DNA of 64,000 bases from Acidimicrobiia bacterium (GCA_029210695.1 JARGFH010000012.1:1-64000); one strand, 5' to 3'. Numbered from the stretch's first letter, positions 24,138 through 64,000 are shown. The notes: generated by a model from the letters alone, not told the origin. Numbers and translations are program-made.

Positions 24138-25586
24138 GTGATCTTGGCCGAGCAACTCGATCCACTCGTCTTCGGACATCGGCTCCGGCATTTCCGGAAG
24201 TCGGCGGGCCTCACTCTCGACGAACTGGGAGAACGAGTGGGAAAGCCGGCCCCGTACTTGTCGACGATCGAGAATGGCAAGCGAGAGCCGAAGCTCTCGC
24301 TGATTTCCGCTCTGGCCGAGGCCCTCGACACCCCGGTGCCCGAGCTCCTCGACTCGACTCCCCCGTCGAAGAGGGCCCGCCTCGAAATCTCGATCGAACG
24401 CATCCAGAACGACCCCCTCTATCGCGAGCTGGGATTGCCCCATCTCAAGCCGTCCGCCCGGGTGCCCGATGACGCGCTCGAAGCCATCGTCGGCTTGTTT
24501 GAAGGGCTGCGCGACCGTGCACAAGTGCGAGCCGCAACCCCTGAGGAAGCTCGCCGGGAGAACGCCGCACTCCGGCTCTACCAGCGTGAGGTGGGCAACT
24601 ACTTCGGCGACATCGAGGCCGCCGCCCGCCGGGCGCTGGCGGCGATCGGATTCTCGGGGTCGGGGGCGCTCTCCCAGCGCAACCTCCTCGATCTCGCAGG
24701 CCATTTCGGGTTTACCGTGCATCCCACCGACGACGTACCTCACGCGGTTCGATCCATCACCGACCTTCGGAACAACCGGATCTTCATTCCTCAACGAAAC
24801 GCTCTCCGCACCAGGGCCGCCCGTTCGGTGGTGCTGCAAACCCTCGGCCACTTCGTGCTCGGCCATACCGACCCCAAAGGTTTTGGGGACTTCCTGCGGC
24901 AGCGCCTCGAAGCCAACTACTTCGCCGGAGCGGTCCTGGTGCCCGAGTCGTCGGCGGCGCCGTTCCTGAGCGAAGCTCATTTCGCGCGCGACCTGAGCGT
25001 CGAGGACCTCAAGGAACGGTTCTACGTCTCGTATGAAATGGCCGCGCATCGTTTCACGAACCTGGCCACCAAACACCTCAACCTGACCGTCCACATGATT
25101 CGCTCCGACGAGGACGGCATCATCTGGAAGGCATATGAGAACGATCACGTTCCCTTCCCCGCCGACCCCAACGGCGCCATCGAAGGCCAGCGCCTGTGCC
25201 GGAACTGGGGAACACGGATGGTGTTTCAGTCGCGTGACAAGTTCTCGATTCACTACCAGTACACCGACACTCCTGCCGGCACGTTCTGGTCATCGACCCA
25301 CGTAGAGGCCGACCGCGAACCTTTGCACGCGGTGACCGTGGGGACGACCTTCGATCAGGCCAAGTGGTTCCGGGGACGCGAAACCGACAACCACACCGCC
25401 TCAGCTTGTCCCGACGGCGACTGTTGCCGTCGACCACCACAGGATCTCATCGCCCGTTGGGAAGGCATGGTTTGGCCGTCGGCCCGACCCCACTCACACA
25501 TCCTCGCCGCGTTGCCGGCCGGAACCTTCCCCGGCGTCGACATGACCGAGATGTACGAGTTCCTCGAGAAGCACCCGGTGGTGTAA
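24138..25586 (+). CDS. RamB/PrpR-like XRE-family regulator
   Basis: N-terminal HTH (YLSTIENGKREP), EANYFAGAVL, VSYE..AHR, C-terminal Cys cluster; divergent from aceBA. Confidence 0.85.
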   Translation: MILAEQLDPLVFGHRLRHFRKSAGLTLDELGERVGKPAPYLSTIENGKREPKLSLISALAEALDTPVPELLDSTPPSKRARLEISIERIQNDPLYRELGLPHLKPSARVPDDALEAIVGLFEGLRDRAQVRAATPEEARRENAALRLYQREVGNYFGDIEAAARRALAAIGFSGSGALSQRNLLDLAGHFGFTVHPTDDVPHAVRSITDLRNNRIFIPQRNALRTRAARSVVLQTLGHFVLGHTDPKGFGDFLRQRLEANYFAGAVLVPESSAAPFLSEAHFARDLSVEDLKERFYVSYEMAAHRFTNLATKHLNLTVHMIRSDEDGIIWKAYENDHVPFPADPNGAIEGQRLCRNWGTRMVFQSRDKFSIHYQYTDTPAGTFWSSTHVEADREPLHAVTVGTTFDQAKWFRGRETDNHTASACPDGDCCRRPPQDLIARWEGMVWPSARPHSHILAALPAGTFPGVDMTEMYEFLEKHPVV

Positions 25587-38228: not shown

Positions 38229-38963
38229 ATGAACTCGATGATTCGACGCTTCCTTCTCATGCTCACCGTCTTGGCTCTCGCCGGCGGGTGCAGTTCCACG
38301 CCGTCCACCACAACGATCGCCGACATTCCGACCACGACGACCACCTTCGGCATAACGAGCACGATTCCCGAGCCGACGACCACCACGCTCCCCCAGGCGG
38401 CCCTCGAGATACGGGCCGCCTTCGACGGGTACGTCGCCGCGCTGGCGGCGGCCGACGGGCGAAGCGCCCTCAGCTACGTCGATTCCGGGACCCTCGACCT
38501 CTATGGAGAGCTGCTGCAGCTGGCCGCTGCACCGGTTCACGTCGACGAGATGGACTTCATCGATGCAGTACTCGTGGTCCGTCTTCGTTTTCGCTTCTCA
38601 GAACAAGAACTGGCGTTGCTCACAGCCGAAGACGTCTTCGTCACGGCCATCGACGAGGCGCTTCTCATATCAACACCCGGAGAGCGGATCAACTTCGACG
38701 CGTTCAATATCACCGATGACCAGGCGACCGGCGAGGTGAGGGGCTCTCCAGCGATGTGGTTTGCCCGTGAGGACGGCAAGTGGAAGGTCGCCCTCGGCCG
38801 CGCCTACGAAGAGTACGCGCCCGTGCTGAGCGTCCAGTTGGAACAGGCCGCTCACGACATCGCAGGGGCCGACGCCGGCCGGGCTGACTCTCTGCTCGGC
38901 CTCCTGAGCACCATCGAAGGAACCGGCATCGACCCGGCGCTCCTCGCCGGACCGCGTCCGTGA
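38229..38963 (+). CDS. Lipoprotein, hypothetical
   Basis: Lipobox LAGGC; Thr-rich linker; REDGKWKV (NTF2-like end). Confidence 0.8.
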   Translation: MNSMIRRFLLMLTVLALAGGCSSTPSTTTIADIPTTTTTFGITSTIPEPTTTTLPQAALEIRAAFDGYVAALAAADGRSALSYVDSGTLDLYGELLQLAAAPVHVDEMDFIDAVLVVRLRFRFSEQELALLTAEDVFVTAIDEALLISTPGERINFDAFNITDDQATGEVRGSPAMWFAREDGKWKVALGRAYEEYAPVLSVQLEQAAHDIAGADAGRADSLLGLLSTIEGTGIDPALLAGPRP

Positions 38964-39000
38964 ATTGGAACTTCCTGGCGGATGCGTGCGTTATAGCCTC

Positions 39001-41013
39001 ATGCGCAGGACAGCATTCACTCTCGTCTTGATCCTGTCGGCTTGTACCGGATCGACGGTTGAGACCACCGGCCCAACGAGCGCCACCACCGCTCCTGCCG
39101 GCCCCTCGGCAACCGAACCACCTATCGCGGGACCCACATCGACAACCTCGACCACATCGACCACGACCGTCCCGGCCACGGTTGTGCCGACTGCCTCGTA
39201 CCAGCTGCTCCCCTCGCCCGATGAGGACCTCGCCTACACGATCGGGCATATGGCGATCGGTGACGCCGGCCTGGTCTATGCAGGCGACGTGAGCACGACG
39301 CCCCGGGATCATCCCAACGAGGGTGCCTTGTGGCACTTCGACGGGCAGGTCTGGACCCGCGCGCTCATCTCCGACCTCACCACCACTGATGAGTACGGAG
39401 ACTCACCCCATGTCTCGGAGCTGGTCTTCTGGGGTGGGCGCTACCTTGCCTTCCTCCTCGGCGACCCTACCGCCCCGGAGTCCGCCGCCTCCCTGCTCGC
39501 CTCGATTGACGGCCGGACCTGGCAACTCGAGCACCTGCTCCCTCAGCGCGCCACCGGCAGTTCACCCGGTGGGATTTTCGCCACACCGGAATCCCCTCCC
39601 CGGCCCGGGGGAGCAGGCATCGCCGGCGTCGCAACGACCGCCGATGAGATCGTTGCCGTCGGATGGGTCACCACCTCTGAAGGGTCGACCGCAGCGCTCT
39701 GGCACTCACTCGACGGCAGGGACTGGACCCTCACCACCACCCCCAACGCTGTGTGGCCGAACGAATGGGCAAGTGCGATATCGGTCGGGGACTCAGGGTG
39801 GCTGCTGGGCGGATCCGGTCCCATCTACGGCACGACTCTCTTGTGGTTCTCAGAAGACGGGGACGACTGGACGTACATCGGCGACCGCTTCGGTGAGGGT
39901 GCATGGTGGTCATTCCATGAGTTGGCCTCGGGTTCCAATGGGCTGGCCGTCGCGGCGTTCGACATGGACTCAGCCACCACGTCGATGTGGAGGTCCGATG
40001 AGGGCATCACCTGGGCCCCGACTTCCGAGCCGCCGTGGCCGGAGGGGTCGGCCGTTTCCCTCGCTTCAGACGGATCGACGATGGCGAGACTGCGTCGTCT
40101 CGAAGACACGACGATCGTCGAAACGTCACCCGACGGCCTGGCCTGGGAAGGCATAGCCGGGCTCTCGTCTGATCCCGGCAACCCGGACATCTTTGTCGAG
40201 TCGCTGGGCCTCGACTATTGGGACGACTCCCTCACACTCACCCGGTTCATGACCCCGGCCGACTACGCCTCTGCCTCCGTCGAAATCTGGATCGATGCGC
40301 CGACGGCCGCGGTCGTTCTGGTTCCGGCCGACGACACGCTGAATGTTCGGCATGGCGTGATGGCCACCGTGATCGGAGAACTCGAACCAACCGCGACCAA
40401 TGTCCGGCCGACCGGTGCCAGCGACGGAGCGGCAGGATCCCTCTGGGTGGAGATCCTCCACAATGGGATCCTCGGGTGGGTCAACTCGATCTACCTGACC
40501 GAGGAGGTTGACGACTTGGCGGCCCTCGATCCATCCGCCACCATCGAGCGGTTCGCCGACGGAGTGTTCCGGGCGGGAGAACCGCTCGGTTCGTACGTCG
40601 GCGCCAAAGGCCTCACCATCACTCACTTCGATCTACCAAAGCATTTCACACTCAACGACGACCCGATGTCCGATCAGACGATCTACCTGTGGGGCAATCC
40701 GGGCTGCGGCCCCGACCCAGACTGCGCGTTCCAGGCGACTTTCGCCAATCAGATCGCCGACAGTTTCCTGTCTGCCTGGGACGACGAGGACCGGCGCATC
40801 GAAATCGATACACCGATCGCCGGAGGAAACGGAACGCTTCCCGAGGCCGTCGTCCCTGTGCTCTTCCGTAACTTCCACTTCGTCGCCGTCCACGACCCGG
40901 GTGACGATCCGGCCTACGGCGGTTTGGACTGGATCACCTGGTACGTCTACTTCGATGTCGTCGACGGTCTGCCCGTCGTCGCAGGGATGTCGGTGGACAT
41001 GTGGGCTCCGTGA
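39001..41013 (+). CDS. Lipoprotein with Asp-box propeller and SH3b-like domain
   Basis: LSAC lipobox; SxDGxxW repeats; DTLNVR...W.EI...GWVNS.YL. Confidence 0.82.
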   Translation: MRRTAFTLVLILSACTGSTVETTGPTSATTAPAGPSATEPPIAGPTSTTSTTSTTTVPATVVPTASYQLLPSPDEDLAYTIGHMAIGDAGLVYAGDVSTTPRDHPNEGALWHFDGQVWTRALISDLTTTDEYGDSPHVSELVFWGGRYLAFLLGDPTAPESAASLLASIDGRTWQLEHLLPQRATGSSPGGIFATPESPPRPGGAGIAGVATTADEIVAVGWVTTSEGSTAALWHSLDGRDWTLTTTPNAVWPNEWASAISVGDSGWLLGGSGPIYGTTLLWFSEDGDDWTYIGDRFGEGAWWSFHELASGSNGLAVAAFDMDSATTSMWRSDEGITWAPTSEPPWPEGSAVSLASDGSTMARLRRLEDTTIVETSPDGLAWEGIAGLSSDPGNPDIFVESLGLDYWDDSLTLTRFMTPADYASASVEIWIDAPTAAVVLVPADDTLNVRHGVMATVIGELEPTATNVRPTGASDGAAGSLWVEILHNGILGWVNSIYLTEEVDDLAALDPSATIERFADGVFRAGEPLGSYVGAKGLTITHFDLPKHFTLNDDPMSDQTIYLWGNPGCGPDPDCAFQATFANQIADSFLSAWDDEDRRIEIDTPIAGGNGTLPEAVVPVLFRNFHFVAVHDPGDDPAYGGLDWITWYVYFDVVDGLPVVAGMSVDMWAP

Positions 41014-44464: not shown

Positions 44465-46567
44465 GTGCGCGCCCAATCCACGCTCCATGAGATCCTTTCG
44501 CCGGAAGAGCGGGCGATCGAGCACGTCGTCGCCCGCTATCAGCGGGTCGCTCCGGCCGTCACACGGGTGGCCCGGAGCCTCGCCGGCGACGATGAACTCC
44601 AGGTGCGACTCGGTTCGACTGCCTCGGCCCGCACTGGCGAGATCGTGCTCGATCCGGGCATCTTCCAGGCAGCCTATGGACGCCGGGCGCCGGTGACGCC
44701 GGGCGAGGTCGCTCTCGCCTCTGCACTCCATGAGGTTGTTCATCTCGTTTCGACCCACCTCGAAGAAGTCCGGCCGCTCCCTCCCTCATGGTTCCCGAAG
44801 CGGGAGACCCCCTTGTCGGAAGAACCCGTCGATCTCTTGACCGCGCTCGCCGAGGCGGGCAGTGAGGCGGCCGTCTCGATGTTCTTCGCGCTCGAAGACG
44901 GGCGGCAGGAGTTGACGGGAATGGCCGCCTACCCGGGGGCACGATCGGTTCTCACCGACCTCTACCAATCCTCCATCAGATCGGCGATGGCTGCCGCCAC
45001 GCCGTTGGGACAGATGGCGATCGCCGGGTTCGCTCTGGTCGGCGAGCACGTCGAGCGCGATGTGCTCGAGAAAGCAGCACAACCGGGAGTGGCGGTCGCC
45101 CTTGCCGACGCTCAACCATTCTTCGATGCCGTGCAAGAGGCCGAAGATGCCTGGGAAGTGGCCACTCTGGCACTCCAGATTCTCGAAGTCGCCAGACTGC
45201 ACGGGCTTGCCTCCAAGGCTCCGGTCGATGAGTCGGCAGCCCAGAAGAAACTCCGCGAGGAGCTCGACAGCCAAGCGGTCGAAGATGGCGTCGACCGGGT
45301 GCGCTTGATCAGCCCGATCGTCCAGAACCTCGACGGATATGAACGCACCCGGCAACTCGAGCAACGAGCAGGAGCCGATGGCGAGAAAGGTCCGTCTGAC
45401 GTGGCCGACGATGCAGCAACCGATCAGCTGCTCCGGGTCAGCCAGGCCCCGACTGTGTTCCTTCCTAGCGGTCAAGGGGGTCGCCTGATGGTGTCGGGGT
45501 TTCCCCACCGCTTCCGGCAATTCGGGCCGGCCGGGCGCGAGACGCTCCTCGAGGCAGCCTCCGCCTGGGGCGTCGCTCAGCGACACGTGTCGGGCGAGCT
45601 GTTCCCTCTCTTCGCCGCTAATCAGCGCAGGGGTCTCCGCTCCGGATACGACGCCGGCGACATCTCGCCACATGCTCCCCTTTTCCTCGGTGCCGGCCTT
45701 TACCAGCGAATGTACGAGCGGCGGGCCCTGCGAACCCGGCGTAGCTACGCGGTATCGCTGCTCATCGACGGATCGGCCTCCATGCTGCAGCCCCGCCCGC
45801 TCACCAGCACCGGTGGCCGCACAGCTCCGTGGGGACTGGCGGCTGCCACGCTGGGGGCCTGGACGCTGGCCCGACTGTGCGATGAGCTTCAGATCGATTT
45901 CGAGGTGGCGCTCTTCAACCGGTCATTCAGCGCCCGGTCGGACGACTCGGAGTGGTCGTTCTCGCGCCGCAGGAGCCAGGCAACGGGGGGATTGCGTCGA
46001 TCCCAAGGGCAGGCGGCCGATCGCCTGACGAATACCATCAACCATTACCTGGTCAAACCATTCAATGCTCGCTGGCGCACTTCCGAGGATCTGCTCGCCG
46101 GGTTGTTCTTTGCAGCTTCCCATCCGACGCGGGCGTCGGCAGAGGCGCGCAAAGCTCCCCACGATTCCCCGCCGGTCGGCATGTTTGAGAAGGCCGCCAA
46201 CGTCGACGAGTTCAACCTCAGCTACGCAGCGCAGCGCCTGTCGCGCCTGGGCGCGACAGTCCGTGTCCTCGTCGTCCTGGCCGACGGCATGACCCGGGGT
46301 TCGCTCGAGTCGCTGGCCCGCTCGGTCGAAGCGGTCGAGCAAACCGGGACGACGGTCCTCGGAATAGGAATCGGAGACGACACGGTTCAGGTGGCCTACG
46401 GACGCCACCAGATCGTTGAGCGCCCGGACACACTGGCCGCGGCCATGGTCGACGGAGTACGCACCGCGTTGAGAAGGAGCCTGGCACTGTCCGGCCTGGA
46501 TGAGTGGTGGACCCGGGCCGGAACAAGAGAACACATGAGCGCATGGAAGGAGAAACCCGGTGCCTAG
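44465..46567 (+). CDS. VWA-domain protein with N-terminal HExxH domain (CobT/NorD-like architecture)
   Basis: ALHEVVH...LEDGRQE; MIDAS LLIDGSAS and VVLADG; VLGIGIG. Confidence 0.85.
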   Translation: MRAQSTLHEILSPEERAIEHVVARYQRVAPAVTRVARSLAGDDELQVRLGSTASARTGEIVLDPGIFQAAYGRRAPVTPGEVALASALHEVVHLVSTHLEEVRPLPPSWFPKRETPLSEEPVDLLTALAEAGSEAAVSMFFALEDGRQELTGMAAYPGARSVLTDLYQSSIRSAMAAATPLGQMAIAGFALVGEHVERDVLEKAAQPGVAVALADAQPFFDAVQEAEDAWEVATLALQILEVARLHGLASKAPVDESAAQKKLREELDSQAVEDGVDRVRLISPIVQNLDGYERTRQLEQRAGADGEKGPSDVADDAATDQLLRVSQAPTVFLPSGQGGRLMVSGFPHRFRQFGPAGRETLLEAASAWGVAQRHVSGELFPLFAANQRRGLRSGYDAGDISPHAPLFLGAGLYQRMYERRALRTRRSYAVSLLIDGSASMLQPRPLTSTGGRTAPWGLAAATLGAWTLARLCDELQIDFEVALFNRSFSARSDDSEWSFSRRRSQATGGLRRSQGQAADRLTNTINHYLVKPFNARWRTSEDLLAGLFFAASHPTRASAEARKAPHDSPPVGMFEKAANVDEFNLSYAAQRLSRLGATVRVLVVLADGMTRGSLESLARSVEAVEQTGTTVLGIGIGDDTVQVAYGRHQIVERPDTLAAAMVDGVRTALRRSLALSGLDEWWTRAGTREHMSAWKEKPGA

Positions 46568-47552
46568 GACCGTTGTATTCACAGATCCGAGTGGGGATGG
46601 ACCGCCGATCGAACTCGAACAGTTCGTGGTGCCGAAGGACCTGCCGGACCATGCGCACCGGGTCGGCAAGATACCGGAACCAGATCCCCATTATGTCGAC
46701 CTCGGGATGCTCTACCGCTTTGCAGCCATGGAGGACGTCCGTAAGCGTTTCCCTGAGGGCTACCAGCCGCTTCACCTGGCGGTCCGGGGCCATATGGGTA
46801 CCGGCAAAGACCACGACATCGAGCAGTTCGCGGCGATGCTTCGCCTCCCGTACTACCGGGTCCCTCTGACGGGCGAGGTTCGAGACGTGACGCTGATTGG
46901 TTCGACACTGCTGCACGGAGACGGCAAAGGGGGAACGGAGAGCCGATGGGAAGACGGCGAGATCACCCGGGCACTGCGCGGCCCGGCTTTGGTCAACCTG
47001 TCCGAGCTGAACGCAGCCGGGGCAGAGACCCTCTTCGCATTGCACGGCCTCCTCGACCGATATGCTGCGCTCGATCTCCCGACGGGCGAAACCGTGCGCT
47101 TGCGTGACGATGTCCGTTTGTTCGGAACAATGAACCCCACCGACTTGCGCGATTACGCCGGAACGCAAACACTCAACAAGGCATTCGCCGACCGCTGGGT
47201 GATCTGGGAAAAGGCCTTCCCTATCGTCGATCAGATTCGCGCCATGATCGAGCGCCGCTACCCGTCGATGTCCGAGCCGTTCAGTGACGCCATCAGCCGG
47301 TTGGCAGCCGAGGTGAACGCCTCGTTCACGGCCCCCGACGTCGCCACGAGGGTCGAGTCGCCGATGAGCCTGCGAACCGTGCTCGACCGGGTTCCGACCG
47401 GGTTGCGCGTGTATGCGGATGCCGACGATCCCCTCCGCAAGGCGTGGGAGGAGTTTGTTCTGCCGCAGATCGATGCCTTCGATCGGGACCATTACGAGAC
47501 CGTGTGGAGCGCGGTTGTGCGCAAGGGACCAAAGGGACCGGCTTTCCGGTAG
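46560..47552 (+). CDS. MoxR-type AAA+ ATPase (CbbQ/NirQ/CobS-like) with atypical Walker motifs
   Basis: GHMGTGKD, WEDG, VNLSELN, TMNP, AFADRW, SLR. Confidence 0.88.
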   Translation: MPRTVVFTDPSGDGPPIELEQFVVPKDLPDHAHRVGKIPEPDPHYVDLGMLYRFAAMEDVRKRFPEGYQPLHLAVRGHMGTGKDHDIEQFAAMLRLPYYRVPLTGEVRDVTLIGSTLLHGDGKGGTESRWEDGEITRALRGPALVNLSELNAAGAETLFALHGLLDRYAALDLPTGETVRLRDDVRLFGTMNPTDLRDYAGTQTLNKAFADRWVIWEKAFPIVDQIRAMIERRYPSMSEPFSDAISRLAAEVNASFTAPDVATRVESPMSLRTVLDRVPTGLRVYADADDPLRKAWEEFVLPQIDAFDRDHYETVWSAVVRKGPKGPAFR

Positions 47553-47593: not shown

Positions 47594-48061
47594 TCAACCC
47601 GCTCGCCTGGTCGAGGCCGGCCCGTATTCGTTGAACCAGGTCTCATAATCCGGTACGGCAAACCCCGCCACGGAGAGCACGTAGTAGGCGCCGAACGGGC
47701 CAATGAACGGAATGGAACGGAGTCCGTCTTGTTGATCAGGGAAGTCCCCCAGCGACTGGATCCAGCGTCCGACGGAACCGAACTCGGCTTTCCGTTCTAC
47801 CAGTAGTTGCGCCGCCCGGCCGACGGCGGCGATCTTGCGCTGGTTGCCGATCACGCCGGGCGTCGCGCAGAGGCGCTCAATGTCACGATTGGTCAGTGCG
47901 GCCACGTCGACCGCCGAGAACCGACCGAAGGCCAGTCGTATCGCCGCCCAGTTGCGGTCGACGACCGCCCAGGACAGTCCTGAAGCGAAGATCGCCCTTG
48001 CGAACAACTCGAGGAACTGGTCAATCGTACGGATGTTGCGGGCTGTGAGATCAGCCGGCAT
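47594..48061 (-). CDS. DNA-3-methyladenine glycosylase I-like protein
   Basis: FASGLSWAVV...AF..F...VA...GVIGNQRKI; GGAGG RBS. Confidence 0.8.
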   Translation of the reverse strand: MPADLTARNIRTIDQFLELFARAIFASGLSWAVVDRNWAAIRLAFGRFSAVDVAALTNRDIERLCATPGVIGNQRKIAAVGRAAQLLVERKAEFGSVGRWIQSLGDFPDQQDGLRSIPFIGPFGAYYVLSVAGFAVPDYETWFNEYGPASTRRAG

Positions 48062-48089
48062 ATCAACCTCCATCTCGTGTCTGCTCTCG

Positions 48090-48111
48090 AACATACGAGA
48101 AGGGTGGGACA
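48090..48111 (-). promoter_or_regulatory. RecA-NDp/PafBC-like promoter
   Basis: TGTCCC-N10-TATGTT upstream of the glycosylase. Confidence 0.6.
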
Positions 48112-48156
48112 GTTCTTCGAGTTGACTACCGTTACTCAGCCGCAACGAAGGAACTC

Positions 48157-49254
48157 ATGCGACCGTACGCGATCGGGGATCCCGTCCTCGAAGAAAAAGT
48201 CAACGAACTCGTAGAAGCTACGGGCGCCGACACCGCCAACGCCGACCTCATCGGCGAGATCGTCACGACCGCCCTCAAACTGCACCGCGATGTAGCCGAT
48301 CGCGGTGACCTCAAACTGCTCAACACAGCCCTCAAGGAGATGCGCTACTCGATGCTCGTCTTCTCTCGCCATCGCGAAATACCGAAGGTGACGATCTTCG
48401 GATCGGCGCGCACCGAAGCGCACGATCCCAACTACCTGCTGGCCGTGGAATTCGCCGGGATCATGGCCCATGATCGAGCCTGGGGGGTCATCACCGGTGC
48501 CGGCCCCGGCATCATGGAGGCCGGCAACAAGGGAGCCGGACTCGATGCTTCCTTCGGCGTCAATATCCGGTTGCCATTCGAGTCGGACGCCAATCAACAT
48601 ATCGAGAACGACCGGGTCATCAACTTCAAGTACTTCTTCACCCGCAAGCTCGGATTTGTGAAGGAGTCGCATGCCTTCGCCCTGTTCCCGGGCGGTTTCG
48701 GGACCATGGATGAGACATTCGAACTCCTGACATTGATCCAAACCGGCAAGAGCGATCTCCACCCGATCGTCCTGCTCGAGGCGGAAGGCAACTCATACTG
48801 GGAGGAATGGCAGCGTTTCGTCGAGGAAAACCTCGTCGCCAACGGCATGATCACGGTCGACGACCTCAGCCTGTACAAGATCACGAGCAATCCCCTTGAA
48901 GCTGCCGACGAGATCTGTCGGTTCTACGCCAACTACCAGTCACAGCGCTATGTGAAAGGCATGCTGGTCCTGCGAATGAACCATGCACCCGACGAAGCCC
49001 AACTCCAGCGCCTCAACGATGACTTCTCCGACATCCTCGTGGACGGCGAGATCAGCGTCATTCCTGCCACCGAGGCGGAAATCGCCGACGCGGACTCGGT
49101 CGATGCCGGACGGGTTTCCCTCCATTTCGATCGCAGAAGCTTCGGGCGACTCAGAAAGCTCATCGACGCACTCAACGATCTGGTCGACACAACTCCCCAC
49201 GAGATTCATCTCCCACCCCCATATCGGGACGAACTTCCCGAGCGACCCTGGTAG
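48157..49254 (+). CDS. LOG-family Rossmann-fold protein
   Basis: FGSAR, TGAGPGIM, KYFFTRK, PGGFGTMDE. Confidence 0.92.
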   Translation: MRPYAIGDPVLEEKVNELVEATGADTANADLIGEIVTTALKLHRDVADRGDLKLLNTALKEMRYSMLVFSRHREIPKVTIFGSARTEAHDPNYLLAVEFAGIMAHDRAWGVITGAGPGIMEAGNKGAGLDASFGVNIRLPFESDANQHIENDRVINFKYFFTRKLGFVKESHAFALFPGGFGTMDETFELLTLIQTGKSDLHPIVLLEAEGNSYWEEWQRFVEENLVANGMITVDDLSLYKITSNPLEAADEICRFYANYQSQRYVKGMLVLRMNHAPDEAQLQRLNDDFSDILVDGEISVIPATEAEIADADSVDAGRVSLHFDRRSFGRLRKLIDALNDLVDTTPHEIHLPPPYRDELPERPW

Positions 49255-62776: not shown

Positions 62777-63166
62777 ATGACAGCAGCTTGCCGCCACAAC
62801 GTCACATGGGAAGGATCGACCGGAGTAGTTGCGTGCGCCTCATGCGGAGCCGTCGAATGGTGGTCCGATGGACGGCCGCTGGATGCCGCCGAAGGCATGG
62901 CCCGGCTGTTCGGGCGATTCGAGCTTGTGAGCACTATGCCATCGCTGCATGCTCCCGCTCCCGATATACTCGCCTATCGCCCACCATCGCGCCGGGCGCG
63001 GGCGCGCCTCGGAGCATTCCCGATCCACCAGTGGCTGCTCGTTTCCGACGGGCTGTGGTTGACCCACGACGGCACGCTACTGCTGCTGTGCCCGACCGAT
63101 CCCGTACTCGCTTCCAATATGTGGTCGGGCGTCGAGACGAGCCCTCAGGAGGTGGGAACGAGATAG
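62777..63166 (+). CDS. Hypothetical Zn-ribbon protein (129 aa)
   Basis: CxH...CxxC; promoter-like motif immediately upstream. Confidence 0.65.
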   Translation: MTAACRHNVTWEGSTGVVACASCGAVEWWSDGRPLDAAEGMARLFGRFELVSTMPSLHAPAPDILAYRPPSRRARARLGAFPIHQWLLVSDGLWLTHDGTLLLLCPTDPVLASNMWSGVETSPQEVGTR

Positions 63167-64000
63167 CCACCGAAGGGCTCCACTACTCGATCAACGAGCC
63201 TGCCTTCGCCGGCCACCAGTACGTACTCGAGATTTCGAAGGTGAGAAACCTCCCCAACCCGTTGACCCTGTGGATCGTGAATACCGATCTGCGCACCGAC
63301 ATAGCGCTTCGAGTCGAAAGCGAGGGCGAGTACCCGGCCCCGCCCCTGCAGCAACTCAACCAGCGCATCGAAGTCGATCCAGGACTCGTTGTTGTAGGAG
63401 AGGACGAGGAGGGTGGCATCGATCTTCGCGATCACGGCCCCGAGGGCAGCGGGCATCTCGCGCTTCTTGTTGAACACGCTCTTGGTCGCATCCTCACGGC
63501 TGTCTAATCGCTTGCAGGCGACGCCGTAATGCTCGGGGTGATCCCAGGCGACGAGCGTCTCCCAGATGTGATAATTCGTGAAGTAGCGGTGCTGGTTATA
63601 GGGAGGATCGAGGTAGGCGAGATCAAACGAACCGAGCTGTCCGGCCAGCTCAACTGCATCGCCTCTCACGACCTGCCCACCGCCGGCCAAAAGATCGGGA
63701 ACCCGCAGTTCGAGCGGTTTGAACGAACGCGGCGCCCACTTCTTCACATACGCCATCTGAACGCCGGTCGTTGAGTCGACCCGGTCTGCCGCCAGGATGA
63801 GCGACGTCAACAGCACCGGATACATCCACGAATCGCGATAGTCCGACTCAATCACCTCCCGGATCGCATCGACTCGCTCAGCGTTGTGCGGTTGGAAGAA
63901 ACGGGATTGGTGGCTGAACGTGTCCGTGAAATACCCCGCCGAGCCTTCCAGGCCGTTCAGCCGGTCGAGGGCGTCCACCACCTCGTCAGTGTCGGCGGTG
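63145..64000 (-). CDS. DNA adenine methyltransferase (partial; 5' end outside the window)
   Basis: DLAYLDPPY motif IV, LSYN; frame open to the window edge. Confidence 0.88.
   Translation of the reverse strand, partial: TADTDEVVDALDRLNGLEGSAGYFTDTFSHQSRFFQPHNAERVDAIREVIESDYRDSWMYPVLLTSLILAADRVDSTTGVQMAYVKKWAPRSFKPLELRVPDLLAGGGQVVRGDAVELAGQLGSFDLAYLDPPYNQHRYFTNYHIWETLVAWDHPEHYGVACKRLDSREDATKSVFNKKREMPAALGAVIAKIDATLLVLSYNNESWIDFDALVELLQGRGRVLALAFDSKRYVGAQIGIHDPQGQRVGEVSHLRNLEYVLVAGEGRLVDRVVEPFGGYLVPTS

Follow-up and report, generated by a model that had tools for sequence, protein, structure and literature searches.

A CobS-like AAA+ ATPase of Acidimicrobiia with Asp and Ser exchanged between its Walker motifs

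Can the hydroxyl–carboxylate pair of a P-loop NTPase be reversed in nature? In canonical members, the Walker A Ser/Thr and the Walker B Asp are reported to share a short hydrogen bond of <2.7 Å (PMC9599734). That paper calls the pair strictly conserved and gives it a central catalytic role; the sole exceptions given in its main text are a Walker B Glu and, in the nucleotide-monophosphate kinases, Gly. The question is raised by a 64,000-nucleotide stretch of DNA from an Acidimicrobiia bacterium (GCA_029210695.1, JARGFH010000012.1:1-64000), referred to as the window. It encodes an AAA+ ATPase, preceded by a CobT-like partner gene, in which Asp follows the Walker A Lys and Ser replaces the Walker B Asp. 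Because the canonical pair is hydrogen-bonded, the exchange joins two residues that are normally in contact. The ATPase gene and its motifs are as follows.

46560..47552, + strand: AAA_5/CobS-like AAA+ ATPase open reading frame (ORF), GTG start, 330 aa
46788..46811, + strand: Walker A, GHMGTGKD (G77 H78 M79 G80 T81 G82 K83 D84), ggc cat atg ggt acc ggc aaa gac
46809-46811, + strand: gac codon of D84, which occupies the usual Ser/Thr position after the Walker A Lys
46989..47006, + strand: Walker B strand, LVNLSE (L144 V145 N146 L147 S148 E149), ttg gtc aac ctg tcc gag
47001-47003, + strand: tcc codon of S148, which occupies the usual Walker B Asp position; E149 is retained
47127..47138, + strand: sensor 1, TMNP (N192), invariant in 81/81 orthologues; N192 and P193 are invariant in an 11-row outgroup alignment
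47181..47198, + strand: AFADRW with R212, the putative trans Arg finger, invariant in 81/81; R212 is invariant with outgroups included
47367..47375, + strand: sensor 2, SLR (R272), invariant in 81/81 orthologues

The exchanged residues and their conservation

That D84 belongs to the column of the usual Ser/Thr, and S148 to that of the Walker B Asp, follows from sequence alignment. HMMER alignment with the AAA modules of midasin places GTGKD opposite SSGKT and GVGKT, and NLSELN opposite VLDELN; MAFFT alignments with GKT/DE relatives give the same columns. In the AlphaFold2 (AF2) model, D84 opens helix 83–94 and S148 closes strand 143–148, with a predicted local distance difference test (pLDDT) score of 92 for the block. 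The AF2 strand and the DNA reading place no Asp anywhere in strand 143–148, so the usual pattern of four hydrophobic residues followed by Asp-Glu (hhhhDE) is absent, and N146 is a polar replacement of a hydrophobic residue in this strand. Among the classical features of an AAA+ site, the Ser/Thr after the Lys is missing (K83 is followed by D84), whereas the sensor 1 Asn, the Arg finger and the sensor 2 Arg are all present. The roles of N192, R212 and R272 are putative, being assigned by alignment with relatives; R212 pairs with the Arg of the midasin 'RNRF' motif.

Both exchanged residues are strictly conserved. A word-indexed protein search returned 1602 relatives, of which the best 120 clusters at 90% identity (75–93% identical to the window protein) were tabulated. 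D84 and S148 are found together in 120/120, all reading GHMGTGKD and hh[N/S]LSELN, and position 146 is Asn in 119/120. A scan of one genome per species of the Genome Taxonomy Database (GTDB) gave 453 genomes with relatives. The best 80 of these (75–97% identity) comprise, by record title, 64 labelled Acidimicrobiia, 7 Actinomycetota with no class given, 7 bacteria, 1 Actinomycetes and 1 Gammaproteobacteria metagenome-assembled genome (MAG), and with the window sequence they form the 81-sequence ortholog set. The Gammaproteobacteria case (locus L057, labelled 'uncultured Gammaproteobacteria') has a 76%-identical gene pair amid the usual Acidimicrobiia neighbours and is therefore probably a mis-binned contig.

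D84 and S148 are invariant in all 81 sequences, although their codons are not: D84 is encoded by GAC in 62 and GAT in 19, and S148 by TCC in 51, TCG in 22, TCT in 5 and TCA in 3. Pairwise identity in the set is 70–100% (median 78%), and 149 of the 330 columns are invariant. The segments R76–D84 and N146–H162 are unbroken invariant runs, among the longest in the ATPase. K83, E149, N192, R212 and R272 are likewise invariant in 81/81, each through 2–6 different codons. The median Nei–Gojobori ratio of nonsynonymous to synonymous substitution rates (dN/dS) is 0.13, a gene-wide value from 400 random pairs (395 with unsaturated dS) in which dS is near saturation. The nucleotide site is thus under purifying selection and is not decaying; a decayed gene or pseudogene is ruled out by the intact frame, the dN/dS of 0.13 and the invariance of the site. 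An initial annotation of the window, which had described GHMGTGKD and LVNLSE, intact sensor 1, Arg finger and sensor 2 motifs and a site shaped by something other than decay, was exact in the coordinates and residues of both Walker motifs and holds on the other points as well. The co-conservation of GKD and SE that it had proposed to check is borne out across the 120 clusters and the 81 genomes.

Family placement and relatives of the ATPase

The ATPase matches Pfam AAA_5 (PF07728, 'dynein-related') over residues 75–212 with 47.3 bits against a gathering cut-off of 22. For AAA_3 (PF07726, MoxR proper) it reaches 18.4 bits, short of the cut-off of 27. The sole NCBIfam match is the CobS equivalog TIGR01650, at 52.2 bits against 558.55 and over residues 71–216 only. 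Among PDB sequences, midasin scores best (E 4e-23), followed by CobS (4e-12) and then CbbQ and NorQ; midasin is also the top match in a library of 50%-identity representatives. The AF2 model (pLDDT 85, predicted TM-score (pTM) 0.84) has the canonical order of AAA+ elements. A helix-2-insert hairpin is predicted (strands 114–120/126–132, between helix pieces 109–112 and 134–139), as is a pre-sensor-1 hairpin (strands 170–172/178–180, ahead of strand 185–191), so that the model contains both hairpins of the helix-2-insert/pre-sensor-1-hairpin clade that includes MoxR, CobS, midasin and the chelatases. The nearest solved folds found by Foldseek are NorQ and CbbQ, with TM-scores (target) of 0.77–0.83, E of about 3e-16 and 18–24% identity. 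The initial label of MoxR ATPase is therefore apt in the broad sense and fails for MoxR proper. Since AAA_3 fails, AAA_5 passes and CobS and midasin are nearest by sequence, CobS-like AAA_5 ATPase is the more exact name. The name 'MoxR-like ATPase' on relatives is a JGI source label only.

Every protein of the 50%-identity representative library, 1.84 billion in all, was searched, and the best 150 of 3078 matches were examined. Among these there is one full-length GKD/SE cluster (P0121, 73% identity), together with fragments, each of which shows GKD or SE where it covers a motif. The next full-length relatives are 27–34% identical (39–40% over the matched core) and carry GKT or GKS with DE or EE. 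Neither GKT+SE nor a nearer GKD+DE protein was found among these 150 matches from the representative library. A distinct subfamily, as initially suggested, is thus upheld, with the GKD/SE clade standing apart from canonical nearest outgroups.

A profile built from these outgroups retrieved 71 proteins, which were tabulated together with P0200. The rows divide into GKT+EE (58), GKT+DE (9), GKS+DE (2), GKS+EE (1) and GKD+DE (1, P0333), with one fragment lacking Walker B; at the position of the Walker B acid, 59 rows carry Glu and 12 carry Asp. The GKT/DE relatives retain the sensor 2 Arg (STR, SHR, SPR). The 58 GKT+EE proteins form a clade (P0264, P0271–P0325) with Walker B LLLLEEMNA and the sensor 2 Arg lost (STG), which takes in records named Thermoleophilia. 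Judged by its residues, this clade is another non-standard site in the same group.

The single GKD+DE outgroup, P0333, opened a second clade. A search from it yielded 55 proteins (P0333, P0338–P0385): 42 GKD+DE, 6 GKT+DE, 4 GKN+DE, 2 GKG+DE and 1 fragment. GKD persists down to about 40% identity to P0333; GKN is nested within the clade, and GKG lies inside it as well (P0382 is the first branch). Just one of its members bears the name of a halophilic archaeon. These proteins share with the window ATPase a Walker A Asp in a CobS-like AAA_5 context. They differ in a Walker B of the form ADE[LIV]NA that keeps its Asp, and they form a separate clade, P0333 itself being 28% identical to the window ATPase. 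Ser in the Walker B Asp column occurs in 0/70 outgroup rows covering the column and in 0/55 proteins of the second clade. In everything surveyed here, Walker B Ser was observed solely alongside Walker A Asp.

In a quick IQ-TREE analysis of 47 rows, the GKD/SE clade has 100% support in the Shimodaira–Hasegawa-like approximate likelihood-ratio test (SH-aLRT) and a stem of 2.58 substitutions per site; the GKD/GKN/GKG+DE clade is separate from it with 98% SH-aLRT. Forcing all non-Ser/Thr rows into a single clade costs 20.4 log-likelihood units (delta lnL), with p 0.025 in the approximately unbiased (AU) test. This is moderate evidence that GKD arose twice, and only moderate because the test was picked after the tree had been seen and long branches are involved.

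The residues around the exchanged pair were compared with 69 outgroup rows, 58 of which come from one clade.

Position 79: M in the window clade, T in outgroups
Position 85: H in the window clade, E in outgroups
Position 86: D in the window clade, L/A in outgroups
Position 146: N in the window clade, L/I/V in outgroups

The clade has lost two acids, one at Walker B and one (Glu) at position 85, and has gained two, D84 and D86. Judged from these aligned residues, the change resembles a broad remodelling with charge conserved more than it does a simple exchange of two residues. Among 116 midasin-like proteins with 484 Walker A motifs, the residue after the Lys is T in 420, S in 52 and N in 4, with R, Q, E, G, I, H or L once or twice each and D in none. 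In one of the midasin-like proteins, P0246 (2600 aa), the AAA module is repeated four times, and every copy carries GERGTGKN, with Asn following the Lys, and WLILDEID.

The CobT-like partner gene

The gene directly upstream of the ATPase encodes a CobT-like protein.

44465..46567, + strand: CobT-like partner gene, 700 aa, upstream of the ATPase
46545..46552, + strand: Shine-Dalgarno-like run, GGAAGGAG, within the 3' end of the partner gene and separated from the ATPase GTG by 7 nt

The partner gene, with its stop codon at 46565-46567, runs 8 nt into the ATPase gene, and the same overlap is present in 72/81 loci; the ATPase is translationally coupled to its partner. In 81/81 loci an ORF lies upstream and adjoins the start of the ATPase, and the partner is recognisable by tblastn in 73/80. 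In 60 of 61 full-length orthologues its start codon (GTG/ATG) aligns to one shared column, and in the remaining one (L073) it is displaced by a single codon. The pair is a fixed chromosomal feature of an Acidimicrobiia lineage.

The partner consists of a helical N-terminal domain, a low-confidence linker and a C-terminal von Willebrand factor A (VWA) domain with a MIDAS (metal ion-dependent adhesion site). The MIDAS residues D435-x-S437-x-S439 are invariant in the orthologue alignment, and D[GA]SAS is found in 76/81 loci, the remaining 5 being cut by contig ends. Sequence matches are faint: Pfam VWA, CobT_C and CobT all fall below cut-off, and the PDB CobT VWA chain gives E 0.029. In Foldseek searches with the AF2 model (pLDDT 78), the VWA domain matches that of NorD best (E 2e-06) and also the MDN1 MIDAS domain, and full-length phage CobT-like models match with E 6e-14 to 2e-12. 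Language-model neighbours of the N-terminal 300 residues, which serve as leads only, include phage clusters (0.96) and a CobT-domain cluster (0.94). Pairs of the cobST type are reported to be widespread in tailed viruses (PMC8651126).

An invariant HExxH motif, H89-E90-x-x-H93 (HEVVH, 44729-44743), lies on helix 79–96 of the N-terminal domain. No peptidase family was matched in Pfam searches that would make the partner a metalloprotease. The motif fits the peptidase mis-annotation that is reported to be frequent for phage cobT (PMC8651126).

The ATPase was co-folded with partner residues 1–372 in the presence of ATP and Mg. The interaction prediction score from aligned errors (ipSAE) was 0.75, 0.72 and 0.75, compared with 0.00 for the best control; in a calibration made without ligands, the ipSAE mark is reached by 116/157 solved complexes and 2/215 mismatched pairs. 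At least 93% of contacts agree between runs, and partner pLDDT is at least 74. The predicted interface joins the ATPase lid (251–264 and 310–322) to partner helices 27–38, 78–88 and 156–162; the HExxH helix 79–96 contributes residues 80–88. This model supports binding of the ATPase and its partner to each other. A preprint reports a comparable arrangement, with the CobT N-terminal domain docking on the CobS small domain (10.64898/2026.10.09.757910).

Likeness to CobS/CobT, the motor of aerobic cobaltochelatase (CobNST), and to the cobST-like gene pairs that tailed phages and archaeal viruses carry extends along both proteins. In Rhodobacter capsulatus CobS, the same preprint places Walker A at 70–75, Walker B at 133–138, sensor 1 at N182, the Arg finger at R206 and sensor 2 at R267; the window ATPase has its equivalents at 77–84, 144–149, N192, R212 and R272. 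TIGR01650 is its best named family and the PDB CobS chains score E 4e-12, the partner has the N-terminal helices, linker and VWA/MIDAS domain of CobT, and the predicted docking of partner helices on the lid matches that reported for CobT on CobS. There are also differences. CobS is reported to have the canonical Thr and Asp-Glu, its E138Q mutant being the hydrolysis-dead form. The present pair scores far under the cut-offs (52 versus 558 bits for CobS; CobT and CobT_C below theirs), and the gene order here is T then S. A true cobaltochelatase CobS/CobT is made less likely by these scores and by the lack of cob genes in the scanned part of the window (36 ORFs, from 24.1 to 64.0 kb, leaving aside the opening 24 kb); a CobN gene could lie elsewhere.

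NorQ/NorD and CbbQ/CbbO, of the CbbQ/GvpN/NorQ branch of MoxR-like AAA+ ATPases with VWA partners, provide the best folds for the ATPase and the same design, in which an AAA+ ring is combined with a VWA/MIDAS adaptor, and NorD is the best structural match of the partner VWA domain. An adjacent VWA/MIDAS gene, overlapping by 8 nt in 72/81 loci, is what an AAA+/VWA two-component system would have. NorQ and CbbQ differ from the window ATPase at 18–24% identity, with PDB sequence matches weaker than those of CobS and midasin. Both carry canonical Walker motifs. Midasin/Rea1 gives the top PDB sequence matches (E 4e-23) and likewise joins AAA_5 modules to a MIDAS domain. Its members, however, are giant eukaryotic proteins, and none of the 484 motifs has Asp after the Walker A Lys. 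A canonical AAA_5 paralogue that could complete a heteromer was sought, and no second AAA_5 gene was found in the window or within 6 kb at the 80 loci.

Readings of the rebuilt site

That an acid can directly follow the Walker A Lys is known already. Such a residue is normal in the sigma-54 activators (GxxxxGKE), active AAA+ proteins such as PspF, NtrC and CbrB; the CbrB motif is GESGTGKE (PMC8871633). In PspF, E43 is reported to perform the role of the Thr and to be essential and partly replaceable by Asp, the E43D variant turning over at 22.3 versus 39.5 min-1 for wild type (56% of Vmax) with unchanged Km (PMC3419264). These enhancer-binding proteins differ from the window ATPase in belonging to another AAA+ clade, in having Glu rather than Asp and no VWA partner, and in retaining a Walker B Asp that is reported to be essential (PMC3419264). 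As the Walker A half of the exchange has precedents in sigma-54 GKE and the GKD/DE clade, the unusual element is the Walker B Ser, and it is this residue, in an otherwise intact and strongly conserved site, that is new. We found no description of a GKD/SE AAA+ protein in the literature, the supplementary exception lists of PMC9599734 aside.

We read the ATPase as the AAA+ half of a two-gene CobS/CobT-like motor, a ring with a VWA/MIDAS adaptor, whose rebuilt site still binds and hydrolyses ATP-Mg; our confidence in this reading is evenly balanced. On the lineage stem, the Mg2+ part of the nucleotide site would have been rebuilt by replacement of Thr with D84 and of the Walker B Asp/Glu with S148, accompanied by Glu to H85, Leu/Ala to D86, a hydrophobic strand residue to N146 and Thr to M79. 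The D84 carboxylate would be the Mg2+ ligand in place of the Thr, as Glu43 is in PspF, and as the sole carboxylate beside the metal would also supply the charge that normally comes from the Walker B Asp. The S148 hydroxyl would form a hydrogen bond with D84, preserving the hydroxyl–carboxylate pair in reversed orientation. E149 would activate water, N192 and R272 would sense the gamma-phosphate, and R212 would act in trans within a hexamer. These roles for D84, S148, E149, N192, R212 and R272 could about equally well prove right or wrong. Outside the site, the N-terminal helices of the partner would dock on the ATPase lid domain and its VWA/MIDAS domain would be presented to a client. That the motor is fully active on the inverted pair as such, with the P-loop Asp on Mg2+ and the Walker B Ser hydrogen-bonded to it, is a more tentative proposal, which we consider rather less likely than not.

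Several observations weigh against an active, compensated site. Replacing either the Ser/Thr or the Asp is reported to abolish activity (PMC9599734), and PspF D107A turns over at 0.23 versus 39.5 min-1, 0.6% of wild-type Vmax (PMC3419264, Table 1). Because this mutant is nearly dead, an acidic Walker A residue does not suffice to excuse the loss of the Walker B Asp. The occurrence of GKD+DE in 42/55 proteins shows that Asp can stand in Walker A with Walker B unchanged. In the 47-row tree the D/S exchange is a single evolutionary event and not repeated covariation, and as both changes lie with many others on the one stem of 2.58, coupling is inseparable from shared history. The further clade-specific residues M79, H85, D86 and N146 weaken the notion of a plain swap. 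As to the partner, the predicted interface mirrors the CobT N-terminal domain on the CobS lid, so the co-fold score may partly reflect likeness to solved CobS–CobT or NorQ–NorD complexes. The initial view of a reciprocal compensatory swap therefore survives in part: the positions are indeed exchanged and strictly co-conserved, while compensation is called into question by the single event, the GKD+DE clade, the PspF D107A mutant and the additional changes. Likewise, its expectation that the two substitutions would not vary independently fails for Walker A Asp, which occurs with DE, and stands for Walker B Ser, which was not seen without it.

The same PspF and P-loop data would suit a nucleotide-binding motor that hydrolyses ATP poorly or not at all and serves as an ATP-dependent assembly switch or scaffold for the VWA partner. 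Loss of the Walker B Asp would then have crippled Mg2+ handling, with the site residues kept for binding and oligomerisation. D107A has its low rate despite the acidic E43, and the polar N146 in a normally hydrophobic strand points the same way. We nevertheless think this unlikely, as E149 and the residues of both sensors and of the Arg finger are invariant in 81/81 with synonymous variation. AAA+ modules without hydrolysis usually lose some catalytic residues. Such loss occurs in this very group, the sensor 2 Arg having disappeared from the related GKT/EE clade. Ser, unlike Ala, could also still position water or bond to D84. Alternatively, the two changes may have been independent and not compensatory, Walker A Asp being recurrent and tolerated and the Walker B acid labile (Asp, Glu or Ser), so that D84 and S148 co-occur for historical reasons whatever the activity. 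The separate clade with GKD+DE in 42/55, GKN in 4 and GKG in 2 (98% SH-aLRT), the disfavoured single origin (delta lnL 20.4, AU p 0.025), the preponderance of Glu over Asp among outgroup Walker B acids (59 rows to 12) and the occurrence of only one D/S event all speak for this. It remains improbable in our judgement: Walker B Ser is never found alongside Walker A Thr/Ser (0/70, 0/55), the two positions are reported to touch in canonical sites (PMC9599734), and the net acid count around the site is preserved, which looks like rearrangement and not drift. Finally, there is a slim chance that the rebuilt site has shifted its cofactor preference to another divalent metal, to metal-free nucleotide or to another NTP. 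A carboxylate in place of a hydroxyl as inner-sphere ligand, together with the new H85 and D86, would alter the ligand field, and the relatives are motors of metal chelatases; yet the P-loop glycines, the Lys and the adenine-side residues are otherwise conventional.

The conserved exchange offers a natural experiment on the splitting of ATP by enzymes of this kind, with precedents for half of it. A widespread lineage (80 species-level genomes among 453 with a relative) keeps the reversed Asp/Ser under strong purifying selection with the other catalytic residues intact. If ATP is hydrolysed, the site would show the freedom of the metal site and give an easy experimental handle on mechanism; if it is not, the ATPase would be a clear-cut case of a conserved AAA+ switch that binds ATP and has a VWA adaptor as its partner. 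An active inverted pair would mean that the 'strictly conserved' [Ser/Thr]-Asp module is reversible in nature. It would also provide a natural double-mutant cycle for separating the role of metal holder from that of the proposed proton trap of hydrolysis, with the GKD/DE clade as a natural single-step intermediate. The finding also points to a chromosomally fixed, uncharacterised CobST-like motor in Acidimicrobiia.

Neighbouring genes

The neighbourhood of the pair is of a housekeeping kind, with dapA, dapB, RNase J, FtsK, an M16 peptidase and Lhr. Synteny was counted as loci with a tblastn match, out of the best 80 of 453 genomes.

M16 peptidase: 55/80 loci
CobT-like partner: 73/80 loci
ATPase: 80/80 loci
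LOG-like gene: 71/80 loci
MDMPI-like gene: 65/80 loci

Such conserved order within one class says little about function. The LOG/'lysine decarboxylase'-family gene (48157-49254, + strand, 365 aa) is, by its median offset, the next gene downstream of the ATPase in the same orientation. At least 1500 nt are available downstream of the ATPase in 71 loci, a count separate from that of the 71 that hold the LOG-like gene. The MDMPI/DinB-like gene comes next after the LOG-like gene in 65 loci. In the window, a Tag-like methyladenine glycosylase gene (47594-48145, − strand; Pfam Adenine_glyco, E 4e-13) stands between the ATPase and the LOG-like gene; having a counterpart in only 6/80 loci, it looks like a local insertion into the conserved order.

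Two adjacent ORFs on the + strand (38229-38963 and 38965-41013; 244 and 682 aa) have coding-like G+C content at third codon positions (GC3) and no Pfam match at E 1e-05; counterparts in the 80 loci number 1 and 0, respectively. Farther away and unrelated to the ATPase finding, the window encodes a regulator with helix-turn-helix (HTH) and M78 (ImmA/IrrE-like) domains at 24138-25586 (+ strand) and a D12-class adenine methyltransferase at 63145-63981 (− strand).

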